Positions 24,218 to 40,864 of a stretch of DNA of 64,000 nt are shown piece after piece (within the stretch, counting starts at the first letter, position 1; each line of letters starts with the position of its first letter). The position numbers were made by a program, and so were the translations under genes. The DNA is from an uncultured bacterium (lineage in GTDB: Bacteria; Actinomycetota; Acidimicrobiia; Spongiisociales; ZC4RG35): NCBI GenBank assembly GCA_963751005.1, contig CAVVSY010000012.1, forward strand, positions 380,565 through 444,564. The letters run 5' to 3'. Under the pieces are notes generated by a model. The model was given only the letters and a program-made list of their open reading frames with translations, did no database searches and had not been told where the DNA came from.

Positions 24218-24971
24218 CGTTTATGGGCCCCCACCGTCTCCACGAAACGGCGCACCCGATCGGCTACCAATTCCGGGCGCTCCATGGGGAGGAAGTGGCC
24301 CGCATCCGGCACGATGTCGACCCCGGCGCGTGGAAACTCCGATGCCTGGCGGCGGGCGAGATCGGGCGTGATCGTCGCCGACCCCTCCCCCGCCATGATG
24401 AGCACCGGTACCTCGATCTCACCCATGCGCTCCCACGTCTCGTGCGCATGCCGAGCCCCGATAGATGTCGGCTTCGATCTCGGGATCGCATGCCAGCTGC
24501 ACCGGGCCTTCGCCGACGAGCCCACAACGGATGTATCCGGCGAACGCCGCCTCATCCCAGCCGGCGAACGCTCCCCGGCCGCGAAAGCTGTCCGCGGCCT
24601 CGGAACGGTCGGTGAATTCGCGACGTCTGCGCAGCGCCGTCTCGCTCATCGCGTTGTCGCTTCGTTCATACGGTCCGGGAAGGACCACCGGCTCGACCAG
24701 CACCAAGGCGCGGAACCGATCCGGATCGGTCGCCTGCGCCATGATCAGGGCCGCGGCTCCCATCGAGTGGCCGACGCCGATGCCGCCGGCCTCGGTCGAC
24801 CTCGAGCACATGCTCACCGAACGCCGACCATGCGATCGGTGGCGAGATCGGGGGGCCCTGGCCGTGTCCCGGGTGATCCCAGGCCACGGTGTCGAAGTCG
24901 GCGAGGAGGGCGCGGACCGGGTCCCAGACGGCGCCACAGAAGCTGGTGGCGTGGGAGAAGTAGACCGTCAT
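24205..24971 (-). CDS. alpha/beta hydrolase (frameshifted)
   Basis: HATSFC, DHPGHG, GHSMG, GHFLPMERP. Confidence 0.88.
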
Positions 24972-25060
24972 CCCGACCGAGGCTAACCCCAAGATCGGCC
25001 GAACTTACCGGAGACCCATATCGTCGGCATCGACCACAGTTGTTACGTTTTCCCCAACGA

Positions 25061-27664
25061 ATGCCCCATCTCTACGACTTCGCCGACGCCGACGGCTCGG
25101 ACCGGGACCTCCTCGGCGGAAAAGGAGCTGGTCTCGCCGAGATGACCGGGCTCGGTTTGCCGGTGCCTCCCGGATTCGTGATCACTACCGACGTCTGCCG
25201 TCACACGATGGAGACGCGGGAGATGCCCGATGATCTGTGGGATCAGGTCGACGAGGCGATAGGGCGTCTCGAGGGGAAGACGGGGCGGAAGATTCGGTGG
25301 TGGCCCCATCCCGGTGCTCTTGTCGGTTCGGTCGCGGCAGCAAATACTCCATGCCCGGGATGATGGACACCGTCCTCAACATCGGCATCAACGACGAAGT
25401 CGTCGCCCATCTCGAGGAATGGTCGGGGGACGCCCACTTCGCCTGGGACGCCTACCGCCGATTCGTCCAGATGTACGCCGACGTCGTCCTCGGAGTCGAC
25501 GAGCATCTCTTTCAGGAGGTCTTGACCAACCTGCGTCACAAACGAGGGCGTCACCGATGACTCCGAGCTCACGGCCTCCGACCTGGAGCGGGCCACGCAC
25601 ATGTTCAAGGCGATCGTGGAGGAGCGCCGGCCCGGGGAGCTCCCCTCCGACCCGAGGGAGCAGTTGCAGGGGGCGATCGAGGCAGTCTTCCTCTCGTGGG
25701 GAAACCGGCGGGCGATCGACTATCGCCGGCTCCACAAGATCTCCGACGAGCTCGGCACGGCGGCCAACGTCCAGATGATGGTGTTCGGCGACCTGGGCGA
25801 CGACTCCGGGACCGGGGTCTGCTTCACCAGGGACCCCGCGACAGGGGCCAGGGTCTCCTACGGGGACTACCTGCCTCGCGCCCAGGGCGAGGACGTGGTG
25901 GCGGGGATCCGCAACACGATGTCCCTCGACGAGCTTGCCGGGCTCCACGCCCGCTGTCATGCCGAGCTCCTCGAGATCATGGACGGTCTGGAACGGCACT
26001 ACCGGGACATGTGCGATATCGAGTTCACGATCGAGCGCGATCGGCTCTACATCCTCCAGACCCGCGTGGGCAAGCGCACCGCGGAGGCGGCGGTCCGACT
26101 CGCCGTCACCATGGCGTACGAGGGTCTCATCGACCATCGGACCGCGGTGACGAGAGTGCAGCCGGCCGCCCTCGAGCAGCTCCACCGCCGCCGGATCGAC
26201 ACCCGAACCGCCCCCCCACCTGTGATCAGCGGAGTGGCAGCCTCCCCAGGAGCTGCGTCCGGGAAGGTGGTGTTCACCGCCGACCGGGCGGTGGAACAGG
26301 CCCGAGACGGCGCATCCGTGATCCTGGTGAGACCGGAGACCACCCCTGACGACATCCATGGCATGGCGGCGGCCGTTGGGATCCTCACCAGCCAGGGCGG
26401 CAAGACCTCCCATGCGGCGGTGGTGGCTCGGGGCATGGGCAAGCCGGCCGTGACCGGCGCTGCCGACCTGTTCGTCGATCCCGAAGCCGGTGTGGCCCAC
26501 GTCGGTGGCCACGACTTGCGCGAAGGAGACGAGATCACGATCGATGGGACGAGCGGAGCGGTCTATGTGGCGGCGGTCGACCTGATCGAGCCCGAGACCA
26601 TCCCCGAGCTCGAAGAGCTGCTGGGGTGGGCAGACGAAGTGCGCAAGATGGGGGTCCGCGCCAACGCCGATACCAAAGAGGATGCTGCCGAGGCCAGACG
26701 CCGAGGGGCCGAGGGCATCGGATTGGCCAGGACCGAGCACATGTTCCTCGGGGAACGGCTCGGCATCGTCCAGCGGGTCATCCTCGCTCCCGACGCGGAC
26801 CGTCGAAACCAGGCCCTGGAAGAGCTCGAGAAGATGCAGGTGGGTGATTTCGAAGGCCTGCTGGAGGCGATGGATGGGCTCCCGGTGGTGGTCAGGCTGC
26901 TCGACCCGCCACTGCACGAGTTCCTCCCCAGCCGGCTCGAGCTGGAGAAGGAAGCGCTACGCCGTGTGCGCGCCGGGCGGCCGATCGAGGACCTGCAGAG
27001 CATGTCGGAACAGGTGGCGAGATGGGAGGAGGACAACCCGATGCTCGGTCTTCGGGGTGTTCGTCTCGGTCTGATGGTCGACCAGCTCTACAGGATGCAG
27101 GCCCGGGCTGCAGTCACGGCCTATGAGAGGCGTCTCGCCGCCGGCGGAAGGCCGATCCTCGAGATCATGGTGCCGCTGGTGGCCACGGCGGAGGAGCTGC
27201 GCCGGATGCGCGAGGTGATCCTCGAAGAGATCGGGGAACACCACGAGATCCCGGTGGGGACCATGATCGAGCTCCCCCGTGCAGCTCTCACCGCCGGAGA
27301 GATCGCCGGGGTCGCCGACTTCTTCTCATTCGGTACCAACGACCTCACCCAGATGACGTACGGGCTGAGCCGCGACGATGCAGAGGGGCTGTTCCTTCGC
27401 GACTACCTGGAGCAGGGCATTCTCAGCAGCGACCCGTTCCAGACTCTGGACCGGGATGGGGTGGGACGTCTCATCGCAGTCGCCTGCCGGGAGGGTCTTG
27501 CCGCCAACCCGGCCCTGAAGCTCGGGTTGTGCGGCGAGCACGGCGGCGACCCCGATTCGATCGACTTCGTCCACGGTCTCGGCCTCGACTACGTGTCATG
27601 CAGCCCGCCACGCGTGGAGGGGGCGCGTCTCGCTGCCGCTCAGGCCGAGCTAAAGGAGGATTAG
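25061..27664 (+). CDS. ppdK: pyruvate, phosphate dikinase (frameshifted)
   Basis: LGGKGAGLAEM, SMPGMMDTVLN, GGKTSHAAVVARG, EDNPMLGLRG, GLCGEHGG. Confidence 0.95.
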
Positions 27665-28766: not shown

Positions 28767-30017
28767 TCAGGTGCGCTCAATCCTCGCCCCGAGCCCACTC
28801 AGCCGCCCGACGAAGTCCTCGTAGCCCCGGTCGATGTGGGACGCATCGCTGATCTCGGTGGTCCCCTCGGCGACCAGGCCGGCGAGGACCAGAGCCGCCC
28901 CCGCACGGATATCGGGCGCGAGGACAGGGCACCCCGACAGACTGCCCACCCCCCGGATGATGGCGTGCTGTGCCTCGATGGAGATGTCGGCACCCATGCG
29001 AAGCAATTCGCCCACATACCGGTAGCGGGCGTCGTAGAGGTTCTCGGTTATCACCGACGTGCCGGTGGCCACGGAGAGCAACGCCACCATCTGTGGCTGC
29101 ATGTCGGTATGGAAACCGGGATAGGGCAGAGTGGCGAAGTCGATCGCATTGGGGCGTTCGGGGCCTTTCACCCGAAGCCACCCGTCTCCCTTCTCGACGT
29201 GGCAACCCGCCGATTCCAGCTTGGTCAGCTCCATGCGCAGATGATCGGGATGGCAGCCGGTGACCGTGACATCACCTCCGGTGATCGCGCCCGCCACCGC
29301 GTAGGTCCCCGCTTCGAGACGGTCGGGGACCACCCTGTGCTCCACGGGCTGGAGACTCTCGACTCCCTCGATGCTGAGCAAGGACGTCCCAGCACCTTCG
29401 ATCCGAGCCCCCATGGCGTTGAGCTGGACGATCAGGTCCTGGATCTCCGGCTCCCGGGCCGCGTTGACGATCACGGTCTCCCCCTCGGCCAGGACACTGG
29501 CGAAGACGAAGTTCTCCGTGGCCCCGACCGAAGGGAACGGAAGCTCGATCTCGGTGCCTTTGAGTCGTCCGTCCACCGTGGCGACCAGCTCGCCATGGAC
29601 CAGGTCGAAACTCGCCCCCATCTGCTCCAGACCGTGCATGTGCCATTCGATGGGCCGCGCCCCCAGGTCGTCACCACCAGGGAGGGCGACACGTGCCTCG
29701 CCGCAACGGGCGAGCAGGGGGCCGAGGACCACTATCGAGGCTCGCATCTGGCGGACGAGCTCGATGGGTGCCTCGGGGCGGGGCTCTTCGGGCACGACGA
29801 TCCACAGCTCATGGTCTCCATGCTCCACCCTGCACCCGGTGTGCTCGAGCACCTGTGCCATCAGCTCCACGTCGAGGATCGCCGGGACGTTGGTGAGGTG
29901 ATGGCGCCCCGGGGCGAGCAGCGTGGCGACGATCTCCTTGAGGACGGCGTTCTTGGCCCCCAGGGTCTGCACCGTCCCGGATAGGCGCGCTCCGCCCTCG
30001 ACGAGGATCTCGGACAT
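28767..30017 (-). CDS. murA: UDP-GlcNAc 1-carboxyvinyltransferase
   Basis: GAKNA, MRAS, SVGATEN, PDRLEAGT, DIRAGA, HIDRGYE. Confidence 0.96.
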   Translation of the reverse strand: MSEILVEGGARLSGTVQTLGAKNAVLKEIVATLLAPGRHHLTNVPAILDVELMAQVLEHTGCRVEHGDHELWIVVPEEPRPEAPIELVRQMRASIVVLGPLLARCGEARVALPGGDDLGARPIEWHMHGLEQMGASFDLVHGELVATVDGRLKGTEIELPFPSVGATENFVFASVLAEGETVIVNAAREPEIQDLIVQLNAMGARIEGAGTSLLSIEGVESLQPVEHRVVPDRLEAGTYAVAGAITGGDVTVTGCHPDHLRMELTKLESAGCHVEKGDGWLRVKGPERPNAIDFATLPYPGFHTDMQPQMVALLSVATGTSVITENLYDARYRYVGELLRMGADISIEAQHAIIRGVGSLSGCPVLAPDIRAGAALVLAGLVAEGTTEISDASHIDRGYEDFVGRLSGLGARIERT

Positions 30018-30097
30018 CAGCGCGAATCTACCTGCGTGCCCCGGAAAGACCCGGAGACCCGGCTGAATCCGGTGTCGGGGCTACCCTGCCTGCGGTC

Positions 30098-30538
30098 ATG
30101 AGAATCGCCGTCGGATCCGATCACGCCGGATACCCCATGAAAGAGCGTCTCGCCTCCTGGCTCGCCGAGTCGGGTCATGCCGTATACGACCTGGGCACGC
30201 ACAACACCGACCCGGTCGACTATCCGGACTATGCGGCGGCCGTCGCTCAGGCAGTCCTCGATGGCAGGGCGGACCGCGGGATCGTCATCTGCGGCTCCGG
30301 CGCTGGTGCCGCCATCGCCGCCAACAAGCTCCAGGGGATCCGGGCAGCGGTCGCCCACGACGGCTACACCGCTCATCAGATGGTGGAGCACGATGACGTC
30401 AACGTCCTCTGTCTCGGGTCTCGCGTCGTCGGCGAGTCGCTCGCCGAGGACCTGGTGACGACATTCATCGCCGCCAAGTTCACCCGGGACGACCGTCACG
30501 TGCGGCGGCTCGACAAGATCCGGGCTCTGGAGGCCTAG
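30098..30538 (+). CDS. rpiB: ribose-5-phosphate isomerase B
   Basis: GSDHAG, VDYPD, CGSGAG, ANK, RHVRR. Confidence 0.92.
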   Translation: MRIAVGSDHAGYPMKERLASWLAESGHAVYDLGTHNTDPVDYPDYAAAVAQAVLDGRADRGIVICGSGAGAAIAANKLQGIRAAVAHDGYTAHQMVEHDDVNVLCLGSRVVGESLAEDLVTTFIAAKFTRDDRHVRRLDKIRALEA

Positions 30539-30543
30539 GGACC

Positions 30544-31203
30544 TCAGCCGGTGATGCTCTGCTCGGCCAGGGCCTTCATCGTGTCGAGACCCGCGACTCC
30601 GACTACACCGGCGAACCGGCCGAGGACCTTGCCCTCACCGTCGAGCACCACGTAGAACGGCGTTCCGCGCATCCCGTAGGCGATCACGGCGCTCGATTCC
30701 TGGTCGTCCATGACCGTGGGGAGGCTCCAACCCTCCTCCTCCAACCAGTCTTGAGGTGGCCAGTTGCCCTGGAGACGATTGGTGAGGACGGTGAGACCGT
30801 ACATGTCGACGTCGCTCCCGAGCCCGCCACCGTCGACCCAGTCGACGATCACAGGCACCTCGGCCTGGCAGTGGGGGCACCAGTGGGCGAGGAAGACCAG
30901 GATCTTGGGCCGGCCGTCGGGACCGATCGTGGTGGGCACGTCGTTCCAGTCGGCGCCGCTGACCACCGGGGCGTCGAGACCCAGCGACGGGTCGGCCAGG
31001 CTGGCGTCGGGGTACACCGGCAGGGGCTCCCCCTCCACGGTGACCTCACCGAACCCGATGGACTCGTCCTGTCCGGGATCCCCGGCGATGGAGAAGGCCA
31101 GCCACACGATCAGGCCGAGACCCACCACCCCGCCGATGATCCACCACAGGGTGTTGCTAGCCGGCTGTTGCTTGTTCTTGTTCGAAGCTGTTTTTGTTGA
31201 CAT
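30544..31203 (-). CDS. membrane-anchored TlpA/ResA-like thioredoxin
   Basis: TM anchor, WCPHC, GTP. Confidence 0.85.
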   Translation of the reverse strand: MSTKTASNKNKQQPASNTLWWIIGGVVGLGLIVWLAFSIAGDPGQDESIGFGEVTVEGEPLPVYPDASLADPSLGLDAPVVSGADWNDVPTTIGPDGRPKILVFLAHWCPHCQAEVPVIVDWVDGGGLGSDVDMYGLTVLTNRLQGNWPPQDWLEEEGWSLPTVMDDQESSAVIAYGMRGTPFYVVLDGEGKVLGRFAGVVGVAGLDTMKALAEQSITG

Positions 31204-31717
31204 AGAGACCAAGTAGGACGGAGATCAGGATAAACGCACATCCAGCCATAAACGGGATGGTGACGAAACCGAAGATGTCGATCTCCGTCGCCGAGCACGG
31301 GTTGGCCGGATCGCAGGCCCCACCTTCGAGGTTGGGGAACCGCTGGATCAGGTAGTGATAGATCGATATGCCCAGACCGAGGATGGATAGCGGTAGCGCG
31401 TAGTACTTGACCTGGAACTCGCGTCTGATCGCACCGACGAGCAGCACGATCGCCATCGGGTACATGGCGATCCGTTGGAACCAGCACAGACGGCATGGGA
31501 CGAAGTGGATCACCTCCGAGTAGACGAGCGAGCCGACGGTGGCCACGAGGGCCACGGCCCACGCCGCCCAGATCGCCTTGCCACCTAGAGCCGTCGCCGC
31601 ATCCGGGCCCTTGACGATGCGGAGGACCACCAGCACCACCGTGGCGGCCAGCGCGACGAAGGCGAGCAGCGCCAGGAGTGTGCTGTAGAAGAGGATGGCG
31701 TCGTTCGACATGATCAC
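31157..31717 (-). CDS. disulfide bond formation protein DsbB/BdbC
   Basis: [10 protein letters not shown], second Cys pair CDPANPC, TM helices. Confidence 0.9.
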
Positions 31718-31901
31718 CGGGAGTGACAGACGTTATCCGTCTGCCGGCCCTGGTGATAATCACGCTCCCTCGCCCGTCACCGTGCGTGGTGGCGGCCTAC
31801 CGTCGAGTCTTCGGCTGGGCGCCCGTTGGTTGGGCGGCCTTGAGGTCCCAAGGGGGAGGCACCTCCACGGACGCCCAGCCCAGAACTCGACTAACGAGAC
31901 C

Positions 31902-32936
31902 TCACAACATCGGCATCACCACCTTGAAGACCGTTATGTCGTCGGGTCGTTCGTAGGTCAACGTCCCGCCCATGAGACGGGCCAGCTCCCTGGCGATCCA
32001 GAGACCGAGACCCACCGAGCCCGGCGCAGGGGACCGGGCATCGGACCCGTCACCGACGATCAGAGCAGCCAGGGAATCGGGGATCCCGGGGCCGTGATCC
32101 CTCACCTCGACGACGGCCATGCCCGACTCCTCCAGGATCGAAATCGACACGGGTGCCTTGCCGTGACGTAGAGCGTTGGTGAGCAGGTTGCGGACGATCT
32201 GGCGGTAGCGAGCCGGGTCGCCGATCGCGTTCACGGCCTGCTCCTCACTGACCCTGATGGCATCGCCCCGCCCACCCATCGACTCGATCACCTGAGCTAC
32301 GTTGGCGCCGACATTGACCCGCACTTTGGCCATCCACAACGCGCCCAGCTCCGCATTGGCCACTGTCAGCAGGTCCTCGACGATGCCCGCCAGGTCCCAT
32401 GCCTGATCGGTCATGTCGCGGACCATCTCCACCCTGGCGTCATCGTCGAGCATCGACCTGGGCTCGGCGAGGAGGCTGGCGTAACCGACCACTGCGGTCA
32501 GGGGAGTTCGCAGCTCATCACTGACCGCGGCGAGGAAGTCGCTGCGATCCCGAACCAGATCGACGATCGTCTGCCCCGCATTGCGAATCCCGGTGATGTT
32601 CTTGAACACCACGAGGACCACCGGGGCCGACACCAGCGGTCGCGCCGTGATTCGGTAGAGGTCCGAGCCCGAGCGGTGCTCGGCGAAGGCCCCGCCGGTC
32701 ATCTCGGCGTTGACGATCATGTCGTGGACCAAGGCGCGGGCCGCCGGGTCGAGCACATCGGCGATCGAGTCTCCCGGGCCGACGACTCTGGTGAACACGG
32801 GCGACTCGGGCCGGTTGACCCTGAGGATCCTTCGCTCCAGGTCGAGCTGGACGATGGTGTCGGGCAAGGAGCCCAACACCTCGTCGAAAGTCGCTTCTAG
32901 CGTCCGATCGGAGAAGTCGGGTGAAGGCTGTGGCAA
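31902..32936 (-). CDS. orphan soluble PAS-like histidine-kinase-family protein
   Basis: VSDELRTPLT, NLLTNA, DHGPG, GLGL; no TM segment; GGAGAG RBS before TTG. Confidence 0.85.
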   Translation of the reverse strand: MPQPSPDFSDRTLEATFDEVLGSLPDTIVQLDLERRILRVNRPESPVFTRVVGPGDSIADVLDPAARALVHDMIVNAEMTGGAFAEHRSGSDLYRITARPLVSAPVVLVVFKNITGIRNAGQTIVDLVRDRSDFLAAVSDELRTPLTAVVGYASLLAEPRSMLDDDARVEMVRDMTDQAWDLAGIVEDLLTVANAELGALWMAKVRVNVGANVAQVIESMGGRGDAIRVSEEQAVNAIGDPARYRQIVRNLLTNALRHGKAPVSISILEESGMAVVEVRDHGPGIPDSLAALIVGDGSDARSPAPGSVGLGLWIARELARLMGGTLTYERPDDITVFKVVMPML

Positions 32937-32955
32937 GTGGCTCTCTCCAACGAGA

Positions 32956-32989
32956 ACGAGCCGGCCCCGGGGAGGAGGAGCCGGCTCGT
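32956..32989 (-). terminator. GC-rich stem-loop after the small peptide gene
   Basis: ACGAGCCGGC...GCCGGCTCGT inverted repeat followed by TCTCGTT on minus strand. Confidence 0.6.
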
Positions 32990-33012
32990 CACTGTGGTTC
33001 CGGGCCTTTGAT

Positions 33013-33105
33013 TCAGCTCATCTCACTTGTGGATGCGAGGGCAGGCGCGGCAACGGCGAGCGCACTGAGAACGACGAGTAGGAGAACGTAGAGACGACGA
33101 CGCAT
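33013..33105 (-). CDS. 30-aa secreted propeptide candidate (signal peptide + STSEMS); not in ORF track
   Basis: GGAGG 7 nt before ATG; MRRRLYVLLLVVLSALAVAAPALA-STSEMS*. Confidence 0.75.
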   Translation of the reverse strand: MRRRLYVLLLVVLSALAVAAPALASTSEMS

Positions 33106-33211
33106 TTGGGGACCTCCATCAGCCGGGGCTTTTGCCTTTACGACCCCCAATATGCGTTATGGCCGTCTTTTCACTGTCTCAACCCCTGGGCCCGCTCGCG
33201 CCAACCTTCCG

Positions 33212-36200
33212 TCACCCGGCGCGACGTTGTCCCCGCGTGTCGATCACGTGACCTTGCGCTCGGAGGAACGCCAAATCGCGCCGAATGGTCGACGGGCTGA
33301 CAGCGAGATGCCTCGGCCAGATTCTCCACAGAAGGCACAGCGCCTCCGCGTAGGGCTTCACCCATGAGACGCAATACCCGGGCCCGCCGTCTGGCGATCT
33401 CGTTCTCGACCCTCTCGTCATCGGGATGCTCCACGGTCCAGATGACCAGCCGACGGTCGTCGCCCTCCAAAGGCCGCCCGGTTGGAGCCCCCGCAGCGGG
33501 GAGACTCACCTCGACCATCCGCGGGGAGACGCTCTGCGCCATCGCCACGATCAGACGGTGCTCGGGAACTCGAGCCACCGCCCTCTCGAACTCCGGATCG
33601 GTGAGACCGGCAAGGGCCTGTCGTAACGCACGATCGGCCAGGATCATCGCCGCACGAGCTTCGTCGGGGACACCGGCGGCGCTGGCGGCCAAGGCATGAC
33701 GATGGTGGAGGAAGATGAGGGCGCTCCACGCCCGGGGACAGGCCTGGAGACCGCCTCACGGGCGAGTTGCAGCGCCGTGGAGTGATCGCCGTCCCCCAGA
33801 GTCGCCTGACTTCGAATCGAGATCAGCTCGACGGCCAGGTCGTCCAGATGTGCCTCGGAGCACACGCGTGCTGCCTCGTCGAGCGCTTCGATGGCTGCCG
33901 CCATGTCTCCGTCCAGGATCTCGAGGAGGGCGACAGAACGTAGCTGCTGCACCTCTAACACCGGGTTTCCCGAGCCTGCCAGGTCGGCCATCCCCGACTT
34001 CAGGAGCTCCCGCGCCTCGCGGAGCCTCCCCCTCCGGGTCTCGACCCCGGCGATGGTCTCCTGACACTGCGCACGGCGGGCCTTGTCGCCGATCGCGGCA
34101 AAGAAGGTCATCGCTGTGGTCGCATCGGTGCGGGCGCGGTCGTCATCACCCAGGAACTCATGGCGAGCTGAGGCAGAGTTGGCAAGGACCATCGCCTCAC
34201 CTCGACGATTGCCCAGCTCGGAGAAGATCCGCGGCGGCTTGGTCATAGCCACCCAAAGCGCCGGCTAACCGAGCCCGAGAGCTTGAAGATGTTCGACAGA
34301 TTCGTCAGGTTGACCCCTTCGCCATGTCTGTAGCCGATCCGCCGACAGAGCTCGATCGCGGTCTCGTAGCGCGCTATCGCCTCGGTCGGTTCGCCATGCC
34401 GGTGCAGGAGGCGTGCCTCGATCCCGGCGACCTCCGCCTGGCCACGGAGATCGCCCAGCTCGGTGAAAATGAGGCTGGCCTCTTCGAGGTGAGCGAGGGC
34501 AGGCTCCACGCGCTGCAACTCCACGAACGTCGAGGCCAGTTCTGTCATCGCATCAGCGCGACGACGCTCGTCGGTGGCGACTTCCACCGCCTCGGAAAGA
34601 GCGGGCACGGCGTCGAGCGGCCGACCCGACCAACGCCGGATCGTTCCCAGAGCCACCAACGCAGAGCCGAGGACGGCGGCGTCGCCGTCGAGACGACCGA
34701 TCGCAACCGAGCGATCCGCGCTCGCCTCCGCTCCTTGGAGATCGCCGGTTTGCGCCAACAGCCAGGCCCGCCGCCGCGCCACATCGGCCTCACCACCGGG
34801 CACACCCCGAGCCATCTCCTCCATGTGGTCGATGACCCCACGTTCCGCGTCGCGATCGCCGAGAACACCGAGGACGTCTTCGAGCAGACCCAGGATCTCG
34901 TATGTCGTCGACTCGGCGAGCCCGGAAACGACGGCACAGTCGCGGGCCGACTCGAGGTGACTCCGAGCCGACGCGTAGGCGTTCATCTCGATCGCCTTGA
35001 GACCGGCCCGACGCAGGTAAGGGGCAGCCTTCGCTGGGTCGCCACCTTCCCGGAAGTGGTATCCGATGGCCTCCACGTTGTCCGGGTCCCCAGACGGAGA
35101 GCGTCGCCCCGACCAGGAGATGGAGGTCGCTGCGACTCTCCTGCGACATTCCGTCGTACACCACCTGCCTGATCTGGTCATGCGTCAGTTGGAACCGCCC
35201 GACCTCCTCGTCGCGCAGCAGACCCCGGTAGAGCAACTCGTCGACCGCATTGAGGACCGTCGTCTTGTCGAGACCGGATGCCGCCTGCAGGAACGGGATG
35301 TCGACCCGATCTCCGGCGACGGCGGCCAATCGATAGACCAACGCGGCCGATTCCCCCAGCAGCGAGAGCCTCGACTCGATCACCCACCTCACCCTCGGGG
35401 CCACGGGAACGTTCCGATCCTGGAGATGACGGTCGAGGACGGAAGCCGGGTCGACACCCGACTCGAAGAGCCCCTGATCCCGGATCGACAGCAGCGTCTC
35501 CAGGGTGAACAGCACGTTCCCGCCCGTCTGGCGATGCAGGCGCGCCGCCACGGTCGAATCGAGCCGGCCCGTCCCGAGGATCCGCCGCACCATCTTGTCG
35601 AGCTCGAAGACGGAGAGGGGCGACAAGATGACCCTTCCCACCCCGGCCACACGGTCGAGCTCGCGGAGAACGTCCCAGACCTCGGCGTCCCCCCTCGCCT
35701 CCTCGCTTCGGTAGAGCACGGCGAAGAGGACCCGCGAGTCGACGAGTCGGGAGCCGACCTGGGTGAGGACCGCCAGGGTGTCCCGATCGGCCCAGTGGAC
35801 GTCGTCGATGATGATCAGGTGAGGTGCGATCCTCCCCAGAGCGACGATGGTGTGGACGAGCGCCTCGATCATGCGAGCCGATTCCTCAGCCGGCCGCGAT
35901 GAGGACTGGGCGACCGGGTCACCGGCGCCGGCGAAGACCGGGGCGAGACGCGCCACCTCCTGCAGCCAAACCGGGGACACCTGCTCCGACACCTGCTCGA
36001 TGCGGAGAGGGCTGAGCGATTCGAGCACCTCGATCAACGGGGCGAAGGGGCGCAGCGCACCGGGCCGACACGATCCCCAGTTGACTTCGAAGCCACGCCA
36101 TCGCGCGTCTTCGGCTGCCTCCAGGGTCGTCCGGGTCTTGCCCACACCTGGCTCGCCCTCGACCAGGACGACTCCCCCGCCCCGGAGAGGACCGCGTTCC

Positions 36201-37055
36201 AGGGCGTCGATCATCTGGCCTCGCTCCAGCTCCCGACCCACGAACGGCGCATCGGTGCGCCGCCCCAACATCACGGCTCGCTCGCCCTCGCGGAGGGGTC
36301 TGACCCCGACCCTGCGCTGGGTCATGATCTTCTCGTAGAGCTCGACCGTGGGAGCGGAAGGCTCCGCCCCCAGCTCCTCCTCGAGCACCGACCGGCACCG
36401 CTCGAACTGGTCGATGGCCTCCGTGGTGCGGCCCAGGAGGAAGCTGAGGCGCATCACTTCCTGATGCGCCTCTTCGCTCAACGGATCGTGGTGGGTGAGA
36501 CGACGGGCGACCGACAGGGCGTCCTCGTATGCGGCGTTGGCCTTGTTGGCGTCGACCAAGCGTCGCAGGGCCGTCAGGTACCGGCGTCGCAGGTGGTCCT
36601 GCTCGATCATGACCCAGTCATCGAAGAAGCCGGCCAGGAAATCGCCGCGGTAGAGGTCGACACAGGAGCGGAGACGGGCCACCTGATCATCGTCGTGACG
36701 GGGATCGGCCGGTCCCGGCTCGAAACTCTCCTCGAACACGGTGACGTCCAGCCAGTGGGGTGCATCCCTGTTGAAGGACAGCGTGTCGGTCGTGGCGTTC
36801 AGGTAGGAGACGTCGTCGGTGTTGACCACATCCTGGATCTGCCACAACGTGTGGCTGAGCCGTCGTCGGGCCCGGCTCTCCGGCAGATCGGGCCAGAAGA
36901 TCCCGGCCAGATGGTCACGCTACTGAGGGCGCTCGGCATGCATCACCAGGTAGGCGAAGAGAGACCTGCCGGCGCGGGAAGCAATGGGGGGAGCGCGACG
37001 GTGCCTCGCTGCAGGAGGAACTCCGCCGAACAGGTGGATACTGGAGCAGCTCCAC
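33212..37055 (-). CDS. large SARP/STAND-like regulator: wHTH-BTAD-AAA ATPase-TPR-C-terminal HTH (several frameshifts, one in-frame TAG at 36920-36922)
   Basis: HLFGG..SLFAYL..FWPD; LYRGDFL, DPLSEEAH; FVGR..GEPGVGKT, IIDDVHWAD, TGGN; helical repeats; LAVSPSTIRRDL. Confidence 0.85.
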
Positions 37056-37135
37056 ACCATGACGCTATCCGGAATGGGCCCACGGATAGGAGGTCCAATC
37101 CCTTGCCGGCGAAAGCCTGCGGGCAAACGATCTTG

Positions 37136-37208
37136 CAGTCCCGACCGGATTCGAACCGGCGTTTCCGGCTTGAAAGGCCGGCGTCCTAGGCCACTGGACG
37201 ACGGGACC
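37136..37208 (-). tRNA. tRNA-Glu (TTC)
   Basis: GGTCCCG acceptor, CT-TTC-AA loop, GGTTCGAATCC; CCA not encoded; follows gltX. Confidence 0.95.
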
Positions 37209-37241
37209 GGGTGCAGGAGAAAGGTTACGCCGAGCCGGAGG

Positions 37242-38668
37242 TCAGCCCAACTCTCTGCGAGCCCGGTCGATTCGCTCCAGGGTCTTGTCCCGGCCCAGGG
37301 CCGTGATCGATTCGAACAAGGGTGGGCTCACCGACGAGCCGGTCACCGCGACCCGAAGCGGTTGAAAGACCTTTCCGGCGCCGATTCCGAGCTCTTCGGG
37401 GAGGGCGCGCAAGGCGCTCTCGATCGTGACGACCTCCCAGGGCTCGGCACCTGCGATCGCGGCGCCGCCCCGCCTCGAGGACCGCCGCCACCTCGTCTCT
37501 CCGCATCACCTTCTCCCAGGACTCGGCGTCGTACTCGGCGAAGTCCTCGAAGAGGAAGACGACCTGGGCCCCGGCCTCGGGAAGGAGCCTGGTCCTCTCC
37601 TGGACCAACGGTGCCATTGAGACGAAAGTGCGCCCACTCGTCCGGCTCCAGGCTGCGGCCGAGCACGTCCTCGACGAACGGCCGAACCATGTCGGCGAAG
37701 GCACCGGCGTCCATGGCCCTGATGTACTCGCCATTCATCCAGGTGAGCTTGTCGGGGTCGAATGCCGCCGGGTTGCGGGAGACGTCGGACGAGGTCGAAC
37801 TTCTCCACGGCCAGCGCCCGATCGAAGATCGTGGTCTCGCCGTCGGGCGACCACCCCAGGATCGCCAGGTAGTTGAAGACGGCGTCGGGAAGGAACCCCG
37901 CCTCCCGATACTCCGACAGCGCCGTCGCCCCGTGCCGTTTCGACAGCTTCTTCCCGTCGGTCCCGAAGAGGAGCGGCAGATGGGCGTAGATCGGGGCCTC
38001 TCCGCCCAGGGCCCGGGTGAGCAGGATGTGCTTCGGGGTGGAGGGGAGGAGGTCCTCACCACGGGCGACGTGGGTGATCTCGTAGTCGATGTCGTCGACC
38101 ATCGACGCCAGGTGATAGGTGGGGGTGCGGTTGCTGCGCAGGATGACGAAGTCGTCGATGTCGGCGGGGGCGAACGAGAGGTCTCCCCTGATGACGTCGT
38201 TGAACTCGACGGGGCCGTCCTGCGGGATCGACAGACGGATGACGCCATCGTCACGTTCGATGTCGGGACGACGGATGTAGTGCCCCGGGTGCCTTCCCTC
38301 GCTCCTGGGCCCGCTGCCGAAGTCCATCGAGCTCTTCGGGAGATCGATCGTCGAAGTAGGCGTGCCCCGACGCCACCAAGGATTCTGCGAGCTCCGCATA
38401 GCGGTCGAGCCGGTCGCTCTGGCGGTAGGTGCCATGCGGCCCCCCGACCTCGATGCCCTCGTCCCAGTCGAGCTCGAGCCAGCGGAACGAACGAGAGGAT
38501 CTCGTCCTCGAACTCCTTCGTGGATCGCTCCAGATCGGTGTCGTCGATGCGGACGATGAATGTGCCGCCGGTGTGCCGTGCGTAGAGCCAGTTGTAGAGG
38601 GCGGCACGGGCCGTGCCGACGTGGAGGAAGCCGGTTGGAGACGGGGCCATTCGCACCCGAACCGTCAT
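37242..38668 (-). CDS. gltX: glutamate-tRNA ligase (frameshifted)
   Basis: [39 protein letters not shown]. Confidence 0.95.
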
Positions 38669-39430
38669 GGCGACACGACAGGGTTGGCGAGGATCCCGAT
38701 CCCGTCGACCTCGACCTCCATCAAGTCCCCGACCTCGACCTTGCCGACGCCAGACGGTGTCCCGGTGAGCACGACGTCGCCGGGGAGGAGGGTGGTGAAG
38801 GCGCGTGATGTACTCGATCAGCTCGCCGACCCCGAAGACCATGTCGGAGGTGAACCCGGCCTGGCGCACCTCGCCGTTGACCCGGCAGATGACAGCGAGC
38901 CGCTCCAACGGATCGAGCTCGGTCTCGATGGCCGGGCCCGAGCGGGCAGAAGGTGTCGAACCCCTTGGCCCTGGTCCACTGGCGATCACTTGCCTGCAGA
39001 TCCCGTGCGGTGACGTCGTTGGCCGCGGTGTATCCGAAGATGTACTGCGAGGCGTCCTCCGCCTTGACGTTGCGGGCCGGTTTGCTGATGACGACCGCCA
39101 GTTCCGCCTCATGGTGGAGCTCGTTGCTGATCGCGGGGTGGACGACGTTGGCGTTGGGGCCGACCACCGAGGTCGCCGGTTTCATGAAGATGAGCGGCTC
39201 GTCGGGGAGTGGCGTTACCCATCTCGTTGGCGTGGTCCTCGTAGTTCCTGCCCAACGCAGAGGACCTTGGTGGGGAACACCGGCGCGAGCAGAGTCACCG
39301 AGGGCCAAGGGACGACGACCTCGGTCGGCTCCCACGCCACGAAAGGAGAGCCCCGATAGACGAGGACACCCTCGGTGTCGGCCACGCCGTAGGCGATGTC
39401 GTCACCGGATTTGATTCGAACGACCTTCAT
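38665..39430 (-). CDS. fumarylacetoacetate hydrolase-family protein (frameshifted)
   Basis: [33 protein letters not shown]. Confidence 0.9.
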
Positions 39431-39460
39431 TGGGAACGAGACGCTACCTAACCCGGCGGC

Positions 39461-39946
39461 TCAGGCCCAGATTCCGAGCCGGGCGGTCAACTCGTCAGGT
39501 TTCAGGACCAGCAATGCCCGATCCACCTCGGCGACTGCAGTCGCACCGGGACGCTGCTCATGGGGCGATGCCTGCAGCCACCGCTCCCGTCGCTCGATCG
39601 ACATCCTCGGAGACGGGGATATCCGTATCCGAGCAGCAGGAGGGCGACTTCGATGTCCTCGGGGACCGGCGCCCTTCCCAACGCCGCAGCTCGGGCCAGG
39701 GTCAGCCCGGCCACGACGGCATGCAGGCCGACGTCGTCACTCGGGAGCTCCGATCTGGGCGAGGAGCTCGCAGACCCCAACCCGGGTCGGGGCCCGGTGG
39801 TGCCGTAGAAGCCACCGCCTGCCGATCGGTCGGGGCGCCTCGGCTATGCCCGGTTTGCCGGATCGCCAGCGGACGGCAGGGCCGGGCTCCAGCAACCGAC
39901 GCGGCTGTTCGCCCTCGGTGATCTCGACATTCGGTTGTTGGGCCAT
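39461..39946 (-). CDS. hypothetical protein (frameshifted)
   Basis: MAQQPNVEI start coupled to ilvE stop; ARAAALGRAPVPEDIEVA segment. Confidence 0.55.
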
Positions 39947-40864
39947 CAGACGAAGGCCAACCAGTGCCCGTAGTCGTCGAGCTTGCCGGCCACGGCTGCC
40001 CCAAACAGCTCCTGGGCCTTCTTCGTCACCGGGCCACGGCTTCCTTCGCCGATGATCCGGCGGTCGACCGAGCGGATCGGGGTCACCTCGGCGGCGGTGC
40101 CGGTCAGGAAGATCTCTTCGGCCGCATACAGGGCGCCACGAGCCAGGTCGGTCTCCCGGACCTCGACCCCCTCGTCGGCGAGCAACTCGATCACCGAGTT
40201 CCTGGTGATGCCCTCGAGGATGCCCGCGGAGATCGGCGGGGTGTAGACCGCGCCCTGGCTGACCACGAAGAGATTCATCCCGCTGCCCTCGGAGACCGAA
40301 CCGGCGTCGTTGAGGAGGATCGCCTCGTCGAAACCGGCAGCAAGCGCCTCCTGCTTGGCCAGAACCGAGTTGAGATACCCGCCGGAGCCCTTGGCGGTGG
40401 GGATCAATGAGGTGTGCGAGATCCGACGCCAGCTGGAGACCATGGTGTCGATGCCCTTCTCTGCCGCGTCGTCGCCCAGGTAGGCGCCCCATGGGAACGC
40501 CGCCATCATCGCCACGACCTCGTTCTTCGCCGGGTTGACGCCGATCGAGCCCCCGCCGTAGAACACCATCGGCCTGATGTAGGCGGACTCGAGACTGGTC
40601 TCGCGGAGCAGGTGGAGGCACGCCTCGTCCCACTCATCCACGCTGTGCCGCATCGGGATCCCGATAGGCACGGGCCGAGGCGTCGAGACGAACCATGTGC
40701 TCACGCAGTCGGAATACGGCGGTTCCCTCCGGGGTGTTGTAGGCCCGGATGCCCTCGAACACACCGGTCCCATAGTGGAGGGCGTGTGAGAGGAAGTGGA
40801 CCTTGGCGCTCTCCCAAGGGACGAGCTCGCCATCGCTCCAGATGTGTGATGCCGTTTCCATCAC
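39946..40864 (-). CDS. ilvE: branched-chain amino acid aminotransferase (frameshift near 40660)
   Basis: LHYGTGVFEG, AYIRP, EGSGMN, LEGITR, GTAAEVTP. Confidence 0.95.

Follow-up and report, generated by a model that had tools for sequence, protein, structure and literature searches.

A conserved 30-codon signal-peptide gene behind an AfsR-like regulator in uncultured Acidimicrobiia and Nitriliruptoria: a candidate autoinducing-peptide cassette

What might a gene of only 30 codons, encoding little beyond a signal peptide, be doing between a giant regulator and a histidine kinase? The question is raised by a 64,000-nt stretch of DNA from an uncultured bacterium of the class Acidimicrobiia (contig CAVVSY010000012.1; hereafter the window), on whose minus strand these three genes follow one another. 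A preliminary description of the locus proposed an RRNPP-like signalling system, in which a TPR regulator is paired with an exported peptide. The comparison of relatives described here confirms the small open reading frame (ORF) as a real, constrained gene tied to the regulator, which is of the SARP/STAND type and resembles AfsR; that the whole is an autoinducing-peptide cassette built on this AfsR-like regulator is a reading for which we see about an even chance.

The small ORF and its parts are placed as follows (all positions are those of the window):

33105..33013, minus strand: small ORF, with an ATG start, 30 codons and a TGA stop at 33015..33013
33117..33113, minus strand: ribosome-binding site GGAGG, 7 nt 5' of the ATG; a AGGAGGTCC-like site is kept across the clade
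33105..33034, minus strand: signal-peptide-like part, codons 1–24
33033..33016, minus strand: six-residue tail, codons 25–30

The product begins with Met and three Arg, continues into a hydrophobic stretch and a Pro-Ala-x-Ala site, and ends after six further residues; the 93-nt frame, the GGAGG and the layout of a signal peptide plus STSEMS, all put forward in the preliminary description, are plainly visible in the sequence. In the ORF listing the frame is open from a TTG at 33150 (45 aa), but the start conserved among relatives is the ATG with its ribosome-binding site. The gap between the regulator's stop codon (33214..33212) and this ATG measures 106 nt, where about 107 nt had been given, and the 76 nt reported between the small ORF's stop and the TTG of the kinase (32936) are reproduced from the coordinates. 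A search of the peptide against NCBIfam returned a single, sub-threshold match (LptM, E 0.39), and the ESM Atlas gave no usable match. Three other identities were considered for the product and set aside: a twin-arginine export substrate (the n-region is too short and, by eye, no Tat-like consensus is visible), a lipoprotein (the window's peptide has no Cys) and the precursor of a ribosomally synthesised and post-translationally modified peptide (no conserved modification genes adjoin the ORF).

Does the small ORF belong with the kinase or with the regulator? A search for the kinase among 60 relatives found 13 full-length orthologues (39–66% identity), and at 12 of the 14 kinase loci (counting the window's own) the kinase is preceded by a 30-codon ORF of like build, with a conserved AGGAGG-type ribosome-binding site and a stop; the two remaining loci (L009 and L010) have neither the small ORF nor the regulator. 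A profile built from these 12 peptides and run over 301 genomes of the order matched in 78 of them at E ≤ 0.01. Many of the weak matches sit in long frames and are ordinary signal peptides, while the best 30 places all have the C-terminus of the regulator just upstream. Eight of these 30 were already known from the kinase search; the 22 newly tested ones were all positive, each with a short frame of the same build and with the regulator's C-terminal domain ending about 80–160 nt upstream, and only three of them carry an orthologue of the kinase. Judged by this co-occurrence, the obligate partner of the small ORF is the regulator, not the kinase.

The same linkage was approached from the side of the regulator. 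A scan of a named genome collection gave 98 relatives, of which 80 were retained, all in metagenome-assembled genomes (MAGs) labelled Acidimicrobiia, Nitriliruptorales, Nitriliruptoraceae or as classes of Chloroflexota. Altogether 158 loci were screened for a small ORF within 420 nt 3' of the regulator (one unpublished locus was excluded); the regulator's C-terminus is present in 117, and 104 of these have the small ORF – or 104 of 114, since three have too little downstream sequence. The ten loci that lack it despite at least 330 nt of downstream DNA are nine labelled Chloroflexota and one other (L146). The 104 positive loci represent 62 distinct places in assemblies of Acidimicrobiia and Nitriliruptoria, where the small ORF is always on the same strand, 65–291 nt behind a regulator of about 1280 aa. 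A small ORF beside homologous regulators, which the preliminary description had set as a test, is thus found at 104 of 114 loci and 62 places. Two cassettes of different clades occur on contigs of a single MAG (CAXMOO01; L105 and L107) labelled Gammaproteobacteria, probably through an error of binning or naming, as every other carrier belongs to Actinomycetota.

Among 1.84 billion representative proteins, 74 match the profile of all 62 peptides at E ≤ 0.001. These are 29–34 aa long in 64 cases; in six longer proteins the similarity lies at the C-terminal end, which points to an upstream start call, and four proteins match at their N-terminus and then run on (P0004, of 59 aa, P0051, P0057 and P0073). 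The last four may have arisen by read-through or loss of the stop, or may be secreted proteins without any relation to the small ORF.

Such recurrence bears directly on whether the ORF might be a product of chance or of assembly, for instance the frame-shifted N-terminal anchor of the kinase. The assembly is indeed prone to indels, and G+C-rich DNA yields many frames rich in Ala, Leu and Val. Nonetheless, the presence of the same ORF at 62 distinct places excludes a chance origin: its length, start, ribosome-binding site and stop recur there in independent assemblies. It is never fused to the kinase and, across dozens of such assemblies, keeps a stop of its own after 29–34 codons, which contradicts the anchor that the preliminary description had itself envisaged; kinase orthologues align from their first residues, without an N-terminal extension. 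Contigs from four public sequencing runs cover 32788–33595 and, among the rows listed (18 more lie beyond these), have no indel within the small ORF. The probability left to an artefact is negligible.

The peptides are 30 aa long at 46 of the 62 places, 31 at nine, 32 at five, and 29 and 34 at one place each, and their frames end in all three stop codons. In 23 members of the window's type the ratio of nonsynonymous to synonymous differences per site (pN/pS) is 0.40 overall (pN 0.25; pS 0.62, with synonymous sites near saturation) – the purifying selection that had been set as a second test. The six codons before the cleavage site have the lowest ratio (0.18), followed by the tail (0.35) and the n- and h-regions (0.50), and mean ungapped identity is 0.67 in the small ORF versus 0.31–0.33 in its flanks. 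Over the 62 peptides, conservation reaches 90% or more in five columns only: Met1, Arg3, Pro(–4), Ala(–3) and Ala(–1). All the peptides have at least two Arg or Lys within residues 1–6 and exceed 1.8 in a 12-residue window of hydropathy, a filter that was also used for finding them; they show the features expected of substrates of signal peptidase I, namely a basic n-region, an h-region, small residues at –1 and –3, and a helix breaker at –4 to –6. The set of conserved columns is the signature of a predicted substrate of this peptidase, not of a membrane anchor.

It is here that another reading has to be weighed, in which the product would remain uncleaved as a 30-aa single-pass membrane protein (N-terminus in, tail out) and modulate a membrane partner such as the kinase, much as small proteins like MgrB modulate theirs. 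The product is certainly very short, the hydrophobic stretch and cleavage region together span about 20 residues, and membrane kinases are frequent neighbours. However, the best conserved residues, Pro(–4), Ala(–3) and Ala(–1), would be needless in an anchor, the hydrophobic core is the least constrained part of the gene, and the kinase of the window's own clade is soluble, all of which makes a membrane mini-protein distinctly unlikely.

Behind the small ORF stands the stem-loop that the preliminary description had noticed, a 13-bp inverted repeat:

32956..32989, minus strand: stem-loop with a 13-bp stem, terminator-like but lacking a T run; minimum free energy –32.1 kcal/mol for the 70 nt after the stop, z = –2.3

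A stable stem-loop followed by a kinase gene would also suit a cis-acting leader peptide, whose translation controls read-through into the kinase. Yet hairpins with z < –2 follow the ORF at only 23 of the 62 places (in a control window placed 300 nt further along, at two of 62), the gene that comes next is not conserved – in several loci genes on the opposite strand lie there – and the conserved residues form a motif for secretion and cleavage rather than a codon run or an arrest motif. A leader peptide is highly improbable on these grounds. The stem sequences themselves differ among relatives.

The regulator, the other constant member, is annotated as follows:

33212..37054, minus strand: SARP/STAND regulator gene, read in five frame segments with one in-frame stop; about 1278 aa in intact relatives

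Its intact relatives measure about 1260–1290 aa and comprise, in order, an OmpR-type winged helix with a BTAD domain, an AAA_16 P-loop NTPase, TPRs and a C-terminal DeoR-type HTH (in an intact orthologue, Pfam E-values are 7e-25 for BTAD, 5e-23 for AAA_16, 8e-14 for TPR_12 and 1e-8 for HTH_DeoR; the window's piece matches BTAD at 1.5e-25). Their alignment has a conserved Walker-A-like stretch rich in Gly with Lys-Thr, and an acidic Asp-Asp stretch. The giant TPR regulator of the preliminary description therefore stands as to its TPR, SARP and STAND domains, but it is not one open frame in the window. Profile positions 4–323 match solved chains of AfsR (8k60, E 9e-14, and 8jke), and the TPR part matches, among solved structures, the TPRs of LGN/Pins, which bind extended peptides. 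No RRNPP receptor is among the 18 solved-structure matches of the regulator, and the Pfam scan gave no RRNPP family, only BTAD, AAA, generic TPR (including SNAP), HTH_DeoR/HTH_11, DUF1670 and GntR. By domain content the regulator is AfsR-like with an added C-terminal domain, outside the RRNPP family. The RRNPP comparison of the preliminary description accordingly holds for the anatomy of the cassette and fails for the descent of the receptor: the cassette appears analogous rather than homologous to RRNPP systems, joining the AfsR–afsS design with their layout of receptor plus propeptide. A cofold of residues 640–1278 of one intact regulator (G016) with the 30-aa precursor scored 0.01 and 0.08 (against a mark of 0.32, with no control pairs alongside), which is evidence neither way. 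Directly upstream of the regulator's start is a tRNA gene (37136–37208, minus strand; 65 bits), the sole Rfam match in 30000–40000.

How, then, is the broken frame of the window's regulator to be understood? Relative to the G016 orthologue, its segments are 37039–35084, 35088–34261, 34231–33719, 33713–33309 and 33307–33215, and its N-terminus contains a garbled stretch and the in-frame stop. Contigs of four public runs from one study (X1–X4), about 90–99% identical to the window, were compared over 31000–38000; these runs contain about a quarter of the sampled words, no RNA run is listed among those that share any, and the contigs stem from a related population, not demonstrably the same strain. 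They lack single bases at 33743, 34233, 34267, 35096, 36192 and 37022 and have extra bases behind 36173 and 36985. As these indels coincide with the changes of frame in the regulator, the breaks are most likely assembly errors and not gene decay; the last frame change, near 33308, has no counterpart among the indel rows shown. The glutamyl-tRNA synthetase gene (37343–39112) is split as well, with bases at 37464, 37632 and 37790 that the run contigs lack, and the pyruvate phosphate dikinase gene (about 24284–27664) seems to be split too, as judged by eye from the ORF list. The genome is 60.5% complete although it comprises only 18 contigs.

Is the small ORF a target of the regulator beside which it lies? 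The intergenic DNA contains two elements that bear on this:

33163..33180, minus strand: SARP box, two heptamer direct repeats (33180..33174 and 33169..33163), 11 bp from start to start
33149..33154, minus strand: –10-like hexamer CATATT, exactly 8 bp after the 3' repeat

According to PMC10936776, a SARP target is marked by direct repeats spaced 11 or 22 bp, the 3' one being 8 bp away from the –10, and through that geometry AfsR acts on afsS, a small gene beside afsR. The pattern AGAY-N7-AGAY occurs within 130 nt 5' of the small ORF at 48 of the 62 places, and a hexamer nAnnnT exactly 8 nt after the 3' heptamer at 41; a control region inside the regulator gene has neither at any of the 62, and shuffling (200 shuffles) gives means of 0.3 and 0.03. 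In the 3.08-Mb genome a 19-nt box pattern has one exact match, which is the promoter of the small ORF, and a longer, degenerate pattern gives one or two sites in three of the five genomes searched, always including that promoter. We infer from this that the regulator, by way of its SARP domain, switches on the small ORF at the repeat box. A simple scan of 32800–33400 for promoters and terminators made no call, as is to be expected where the promoter depends on a SARP and has a poor –35, and where the hairpin lacks a T run.

The only other degenerate match of box plus hexamer in the window's genome (G000 contig C4:865202-865233; locus L160) has a membrane histidine kinase gene some 170 nt downstream and is possibly a second target of the regulator. 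A further element emerged from an alignment of the intergenic DNA of 23 places:

33204..33214, minus strand: conserved box TGACGGAAGGT, comprising the regulator's stop codon and 8 nt

In relatives the TGACGGAAGGT box provides the 5' arm of a hairpin whose sequence varies, and a related box, TGAGCGCAAGGT, is found at the regulator's stop in several other clades. The C-terminal HTH may bind there, or the box may belong to a terminator of which one arm is conserved.

The tail, of 5–8 residues, is alike within a clade of regulators and unlike between clades, and most tails have Asp, Asn, Tyr or His at position four and Met, Trp, Phe, Leu, Ile or Val at position five. In a quick tree built from the regulator's C-terminal 440 residues (51 of 62 rows, 11 having fallen short of 440 aa of unbroken regulator frame) the clades coincide with tail types, and the two cassettes of different clades in one MAG (L105 and L107) have different tails. 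Tail distance tracks TPR distance best (rho 0.40, partial 0.25, a weak correlation between pairs that are not independent), the partial correlations with the NOD and the SARP domain being –0.07 and –0.03. We take the correlation of tail and TPR distance as a weak hint of co-diversification.

These tails also bear on the possibility that the peptide is solely an output of the regulator, an afsS-like target that acts as a secreted effector or interspecies signal without feedback. The box geometry shared with the activation of afsS by AfsR would fit such a role, as would the different small gene that occupies the same position in relatives labelled Chloroflexota (at L101, L128, L140, L142, L147, L148 and L158, a conserved small ORF with a frame of about 70–110 aa, a Trp-rich core and no signal peptide), which may be an afsS-like target and implies that the small gene behind the regulator is generally the regulator's target. 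By contrast, tails that follow regulator clades, and two tail types in one MAG, are what would be expected of pairs of ligand and receptor; moreover, an unmodified peptide of 5–8 residues is unlikely as an effector, and no conserved genes for modification or export lie beside the small ORF. A peptide that is output alone is in our estimate quite improbable.

The third gene of the locus raises the question of a different receptor:

31902..32936, minus strand: histidine kinase of 344 aa with a TTG start and an N-terminal PAS-like part; HisKA E 2e-13, HATPase_c E 2e-19

The co-oriented kinase-family gene of the preliminary description is, by these matches, a histidine kinase. By eye, no hydrophobic segment is seen in its translation, and a transmembrane scan of three orthologues found none. 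At the 57 of the 62 places that have at least 1 kb of downstream sequence, a histidine-kinase/PAS gene follows the small ORF on the same strand within 2.2 kb in 34 cases, and these genes fall into no fewer than three unrelated types – the window's clade has soluble PAS kinases, one family (f12) a PAS protein, and L064, L065 and L074 multi-pass HisKA kinases, with six predicted segments in the first two and four in the third. At least two segments are predicted at nine of 11 loci of Nitriliruptoria and neighbouring clades (on a crude scale, and with some ORF starts over-extended). In three loci of the Nitriliruptoria clade (L120, L110 and L098) the ORF of the membrane kinase starts 4 nt before the stop of the small ORF, an overlap that suggests co-transcription and translational coupling. 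As judged from its occurrence, the kinase is a frequent but not an obligatory third member. Behind the window's kinase, at 30544–31717 (minus strand), are genes for a DsbB-like membrane protein and a membrane-anchored redoxin/TlpA-like protein, a neighbourhood that is not conserved in the relatives examined.

A secreted tail, or a membrane-embedded peptide, might thus be sensed by the co-encoded kinase in the style of Agr/Com systems, with the STAND regulator only driving the operon. For this speak the frequency and the unrelated types of the kinases behind the small ORF, the several multi-pass ones among them (including those nine of 11 loci), the three of 11 kinase ORFs with the 4-nt overlap, and the fact that the genome's only other box-like site is upstream of another membrane kinase. 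On the other hand, 23 of the 57 places have no such downstream gene, and kinase orthologues occur without the cassette at L009 and L010. The kinase of the window's clade, having no membrane segment, could only see an imported peptide, and no response regulator was noticed as a constant neighbour, though no systematic search for one was made. We regard sensing by the kinase as unlikely.

The reading that we favour is that of a peptide loop closed through the regulator. Its SARP domain would bind the repeats spaced by 11 bp and activate the promoter of the 30-codon gene; in many lineages this promoter would probably also drive the histidine kinase. The product, a bare Sec-type signal peptide with a tail of 5–8 residues (six here), would be inserted in the membrane and cut by signal peptidase I after Ala-x-Ala, so that the tail is released outside, builds up as cells become denser and is detected in turn by the cassette. 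Sensing would most likely proceed through uptake by an oligopeptide transporter and then binding to the TPR region of the regulator, which would switch on its STAND ATPase and complete a loop of positive feedback. At least five strong SBP_bac_5 loci, for oligopeptide-binding proteins, are present in the genome, which shows only that importers exist. From the layout of the genes and their conservation we infer each of these steps: box binding by the regulator, export, cleavage, import and recognition of the tail by the TPRs. The most specific form of this proposal is that a ribosomally made hexa- to octapeptide freed by signal peptidase alone would be the natural activating ligand of an NLR-like STAND factor of the AfsR type, which in turn would drive the peptide gene from its SARP box, and that this would be a signalling class so far undescribed, in Acidimicrobiia and Nitriliruptoria; to this we give somewhat less than an even chance.

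Several observations weigh against the peptide loop. A product of 30 aa ends inside the ribosome tunnel, so that it could be targeted only after translation, and its hydrophobic segment could equally well stay in the membrane as an anchor. The repeat box is missing at 14 of the 62 places, and the small gene of the Chloroflexota-labelled relatives is a different and non-secreted one. Correlation with TPR distance is about as strong for the signal-peptide part as for the tail (rho 0.39 versus 0.40), which makes it unspecific, and it is confounded by phylogeny. A kinase follows at 60% of places and overlaps the ORF at three, making it a possible receptor instead, and the window's own regulator reads as broken. 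The interpretation is nevertheless partly supported, in its anatomy and in the two comparative tests that were run, with its functional part standing as a proposal.

How does such a cassette relate to systems already described? Of these, AfsK–AfsR–AfsS of Streptomyces coelicolor shares the build of SARP, P-loop NOD and TPRs (with an N-terminus that matches solved AfsR), a small gene immediately 3' of the regulator and a kinase gene nearby. It differs in that AfsS is a cytoplasmic protein of 63 aa, not signal-peptide-like, whereas the small gene here encodes a predicted signal peptide with a tail of 5–8 residues; in that the regulator here has an extra C-terminal domain of about 150 aa with a DeoR-type HTH; in that the kinase here is a histidine kinase and AfsK-type kinases are Ser/Thr kinases; and in its hosts, which here are Acidimicrobiia and Nitriliruptoria instead of Streptomyces. 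The spacing of the repeats (11 bp, with the 3' repeat 8 bp from the –10) is a further likeness, as PMC10936776 describes it for afsS.

The RRNPP(A) systems of Bacillota (Rap–Phr, NprR–NprX, PlcR–PapR, PrgX, Rgg–SHP and AimR–AimP) likewise pair a cytoplasmic TPR regulator with an adjacent small gene, whose product has an export signal (here a predicted one) and a short C-terminal part, the active part in RRNPP being 5–10 residues long. In both, tails diversify with receptor clades, and in both the small gene is activated by its own receptor – probably so here, and in the known case of papR by PlcR. Unlike those receptors, the one here has about 1280 aa, a STAND ATPase and a SARP output domain, and is not homologous; furthermore, the cut by signal peptidase would by itself yield the mature peptide, without a second protease step, and the host phylum is Actinomycetota. 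In that phylum, signals are described as typically small molecules in the RRNPP_detector paper (PMC10075063).

In the very short precursor, with its basic N-terminus, hydrophobic body and C-terminal end, and in the position of its gene beside the receptor, the cassette also resembles Rgg–SHP and ComR–ComS. Precursors of the SHP/ComS kind measure about 20–35 aa and are active through their C-terminal end, and SHPs have no signal-peptidase site, whereas the Ala-x-Ala site is the most conserved feature here. The export of SHPs is by PptAB and their processing by Eep (compare the abstract of PMC7564271). Two-component systems of the Agr/Com type share with some of the loci a small peptide gene beside a multi-pass membrane histidine kinase. 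They differ from the cassette, where no dedicated gene for processing or export is seen, where no adjacent response regulator was noticed (again without a systematic search), and where the kinases, of the HisKA type, are missing at 23 of 57 places and soluble in the clade of the window.

Autoinducing peptides that are read by receptors in the cytoplasm count as a hallmark of Bacillota. The full-text literature that was searched – with few subscription journals and without supplements, which may list SARP boxes or small ORFs – yielded no secreted-peptide gene paired with a SARP/STAND regulator; in the same scope, which includes passages of PMC10075063, PMC10936776 and the preprint 10.64898/2026.09.02.748808, no peptide autoinducers in Acidimicrobiia or Nitriliruptoria were found.

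AfsR-type regulators are central switches of antibiotic production, and their activating signal, as we understand one published passage, is apparently still to be identified. By placing a candidate ligand gene under what appears to be the regulator's own promoter box, the conserved cassette offers a directly testable hypothesis, and it supplies dozens of natural tail variants for studies of specificity. It also illustrates how, in uncultured lineages, synteny can bring to light a gene that with 30 codons is about as short as gene callers can handle. If the proposal is true, large SARP regulators would gain with this peptide their first genetically encoded ligand, and Actinomycetota their first autoinducer loop in the RRNPP style.

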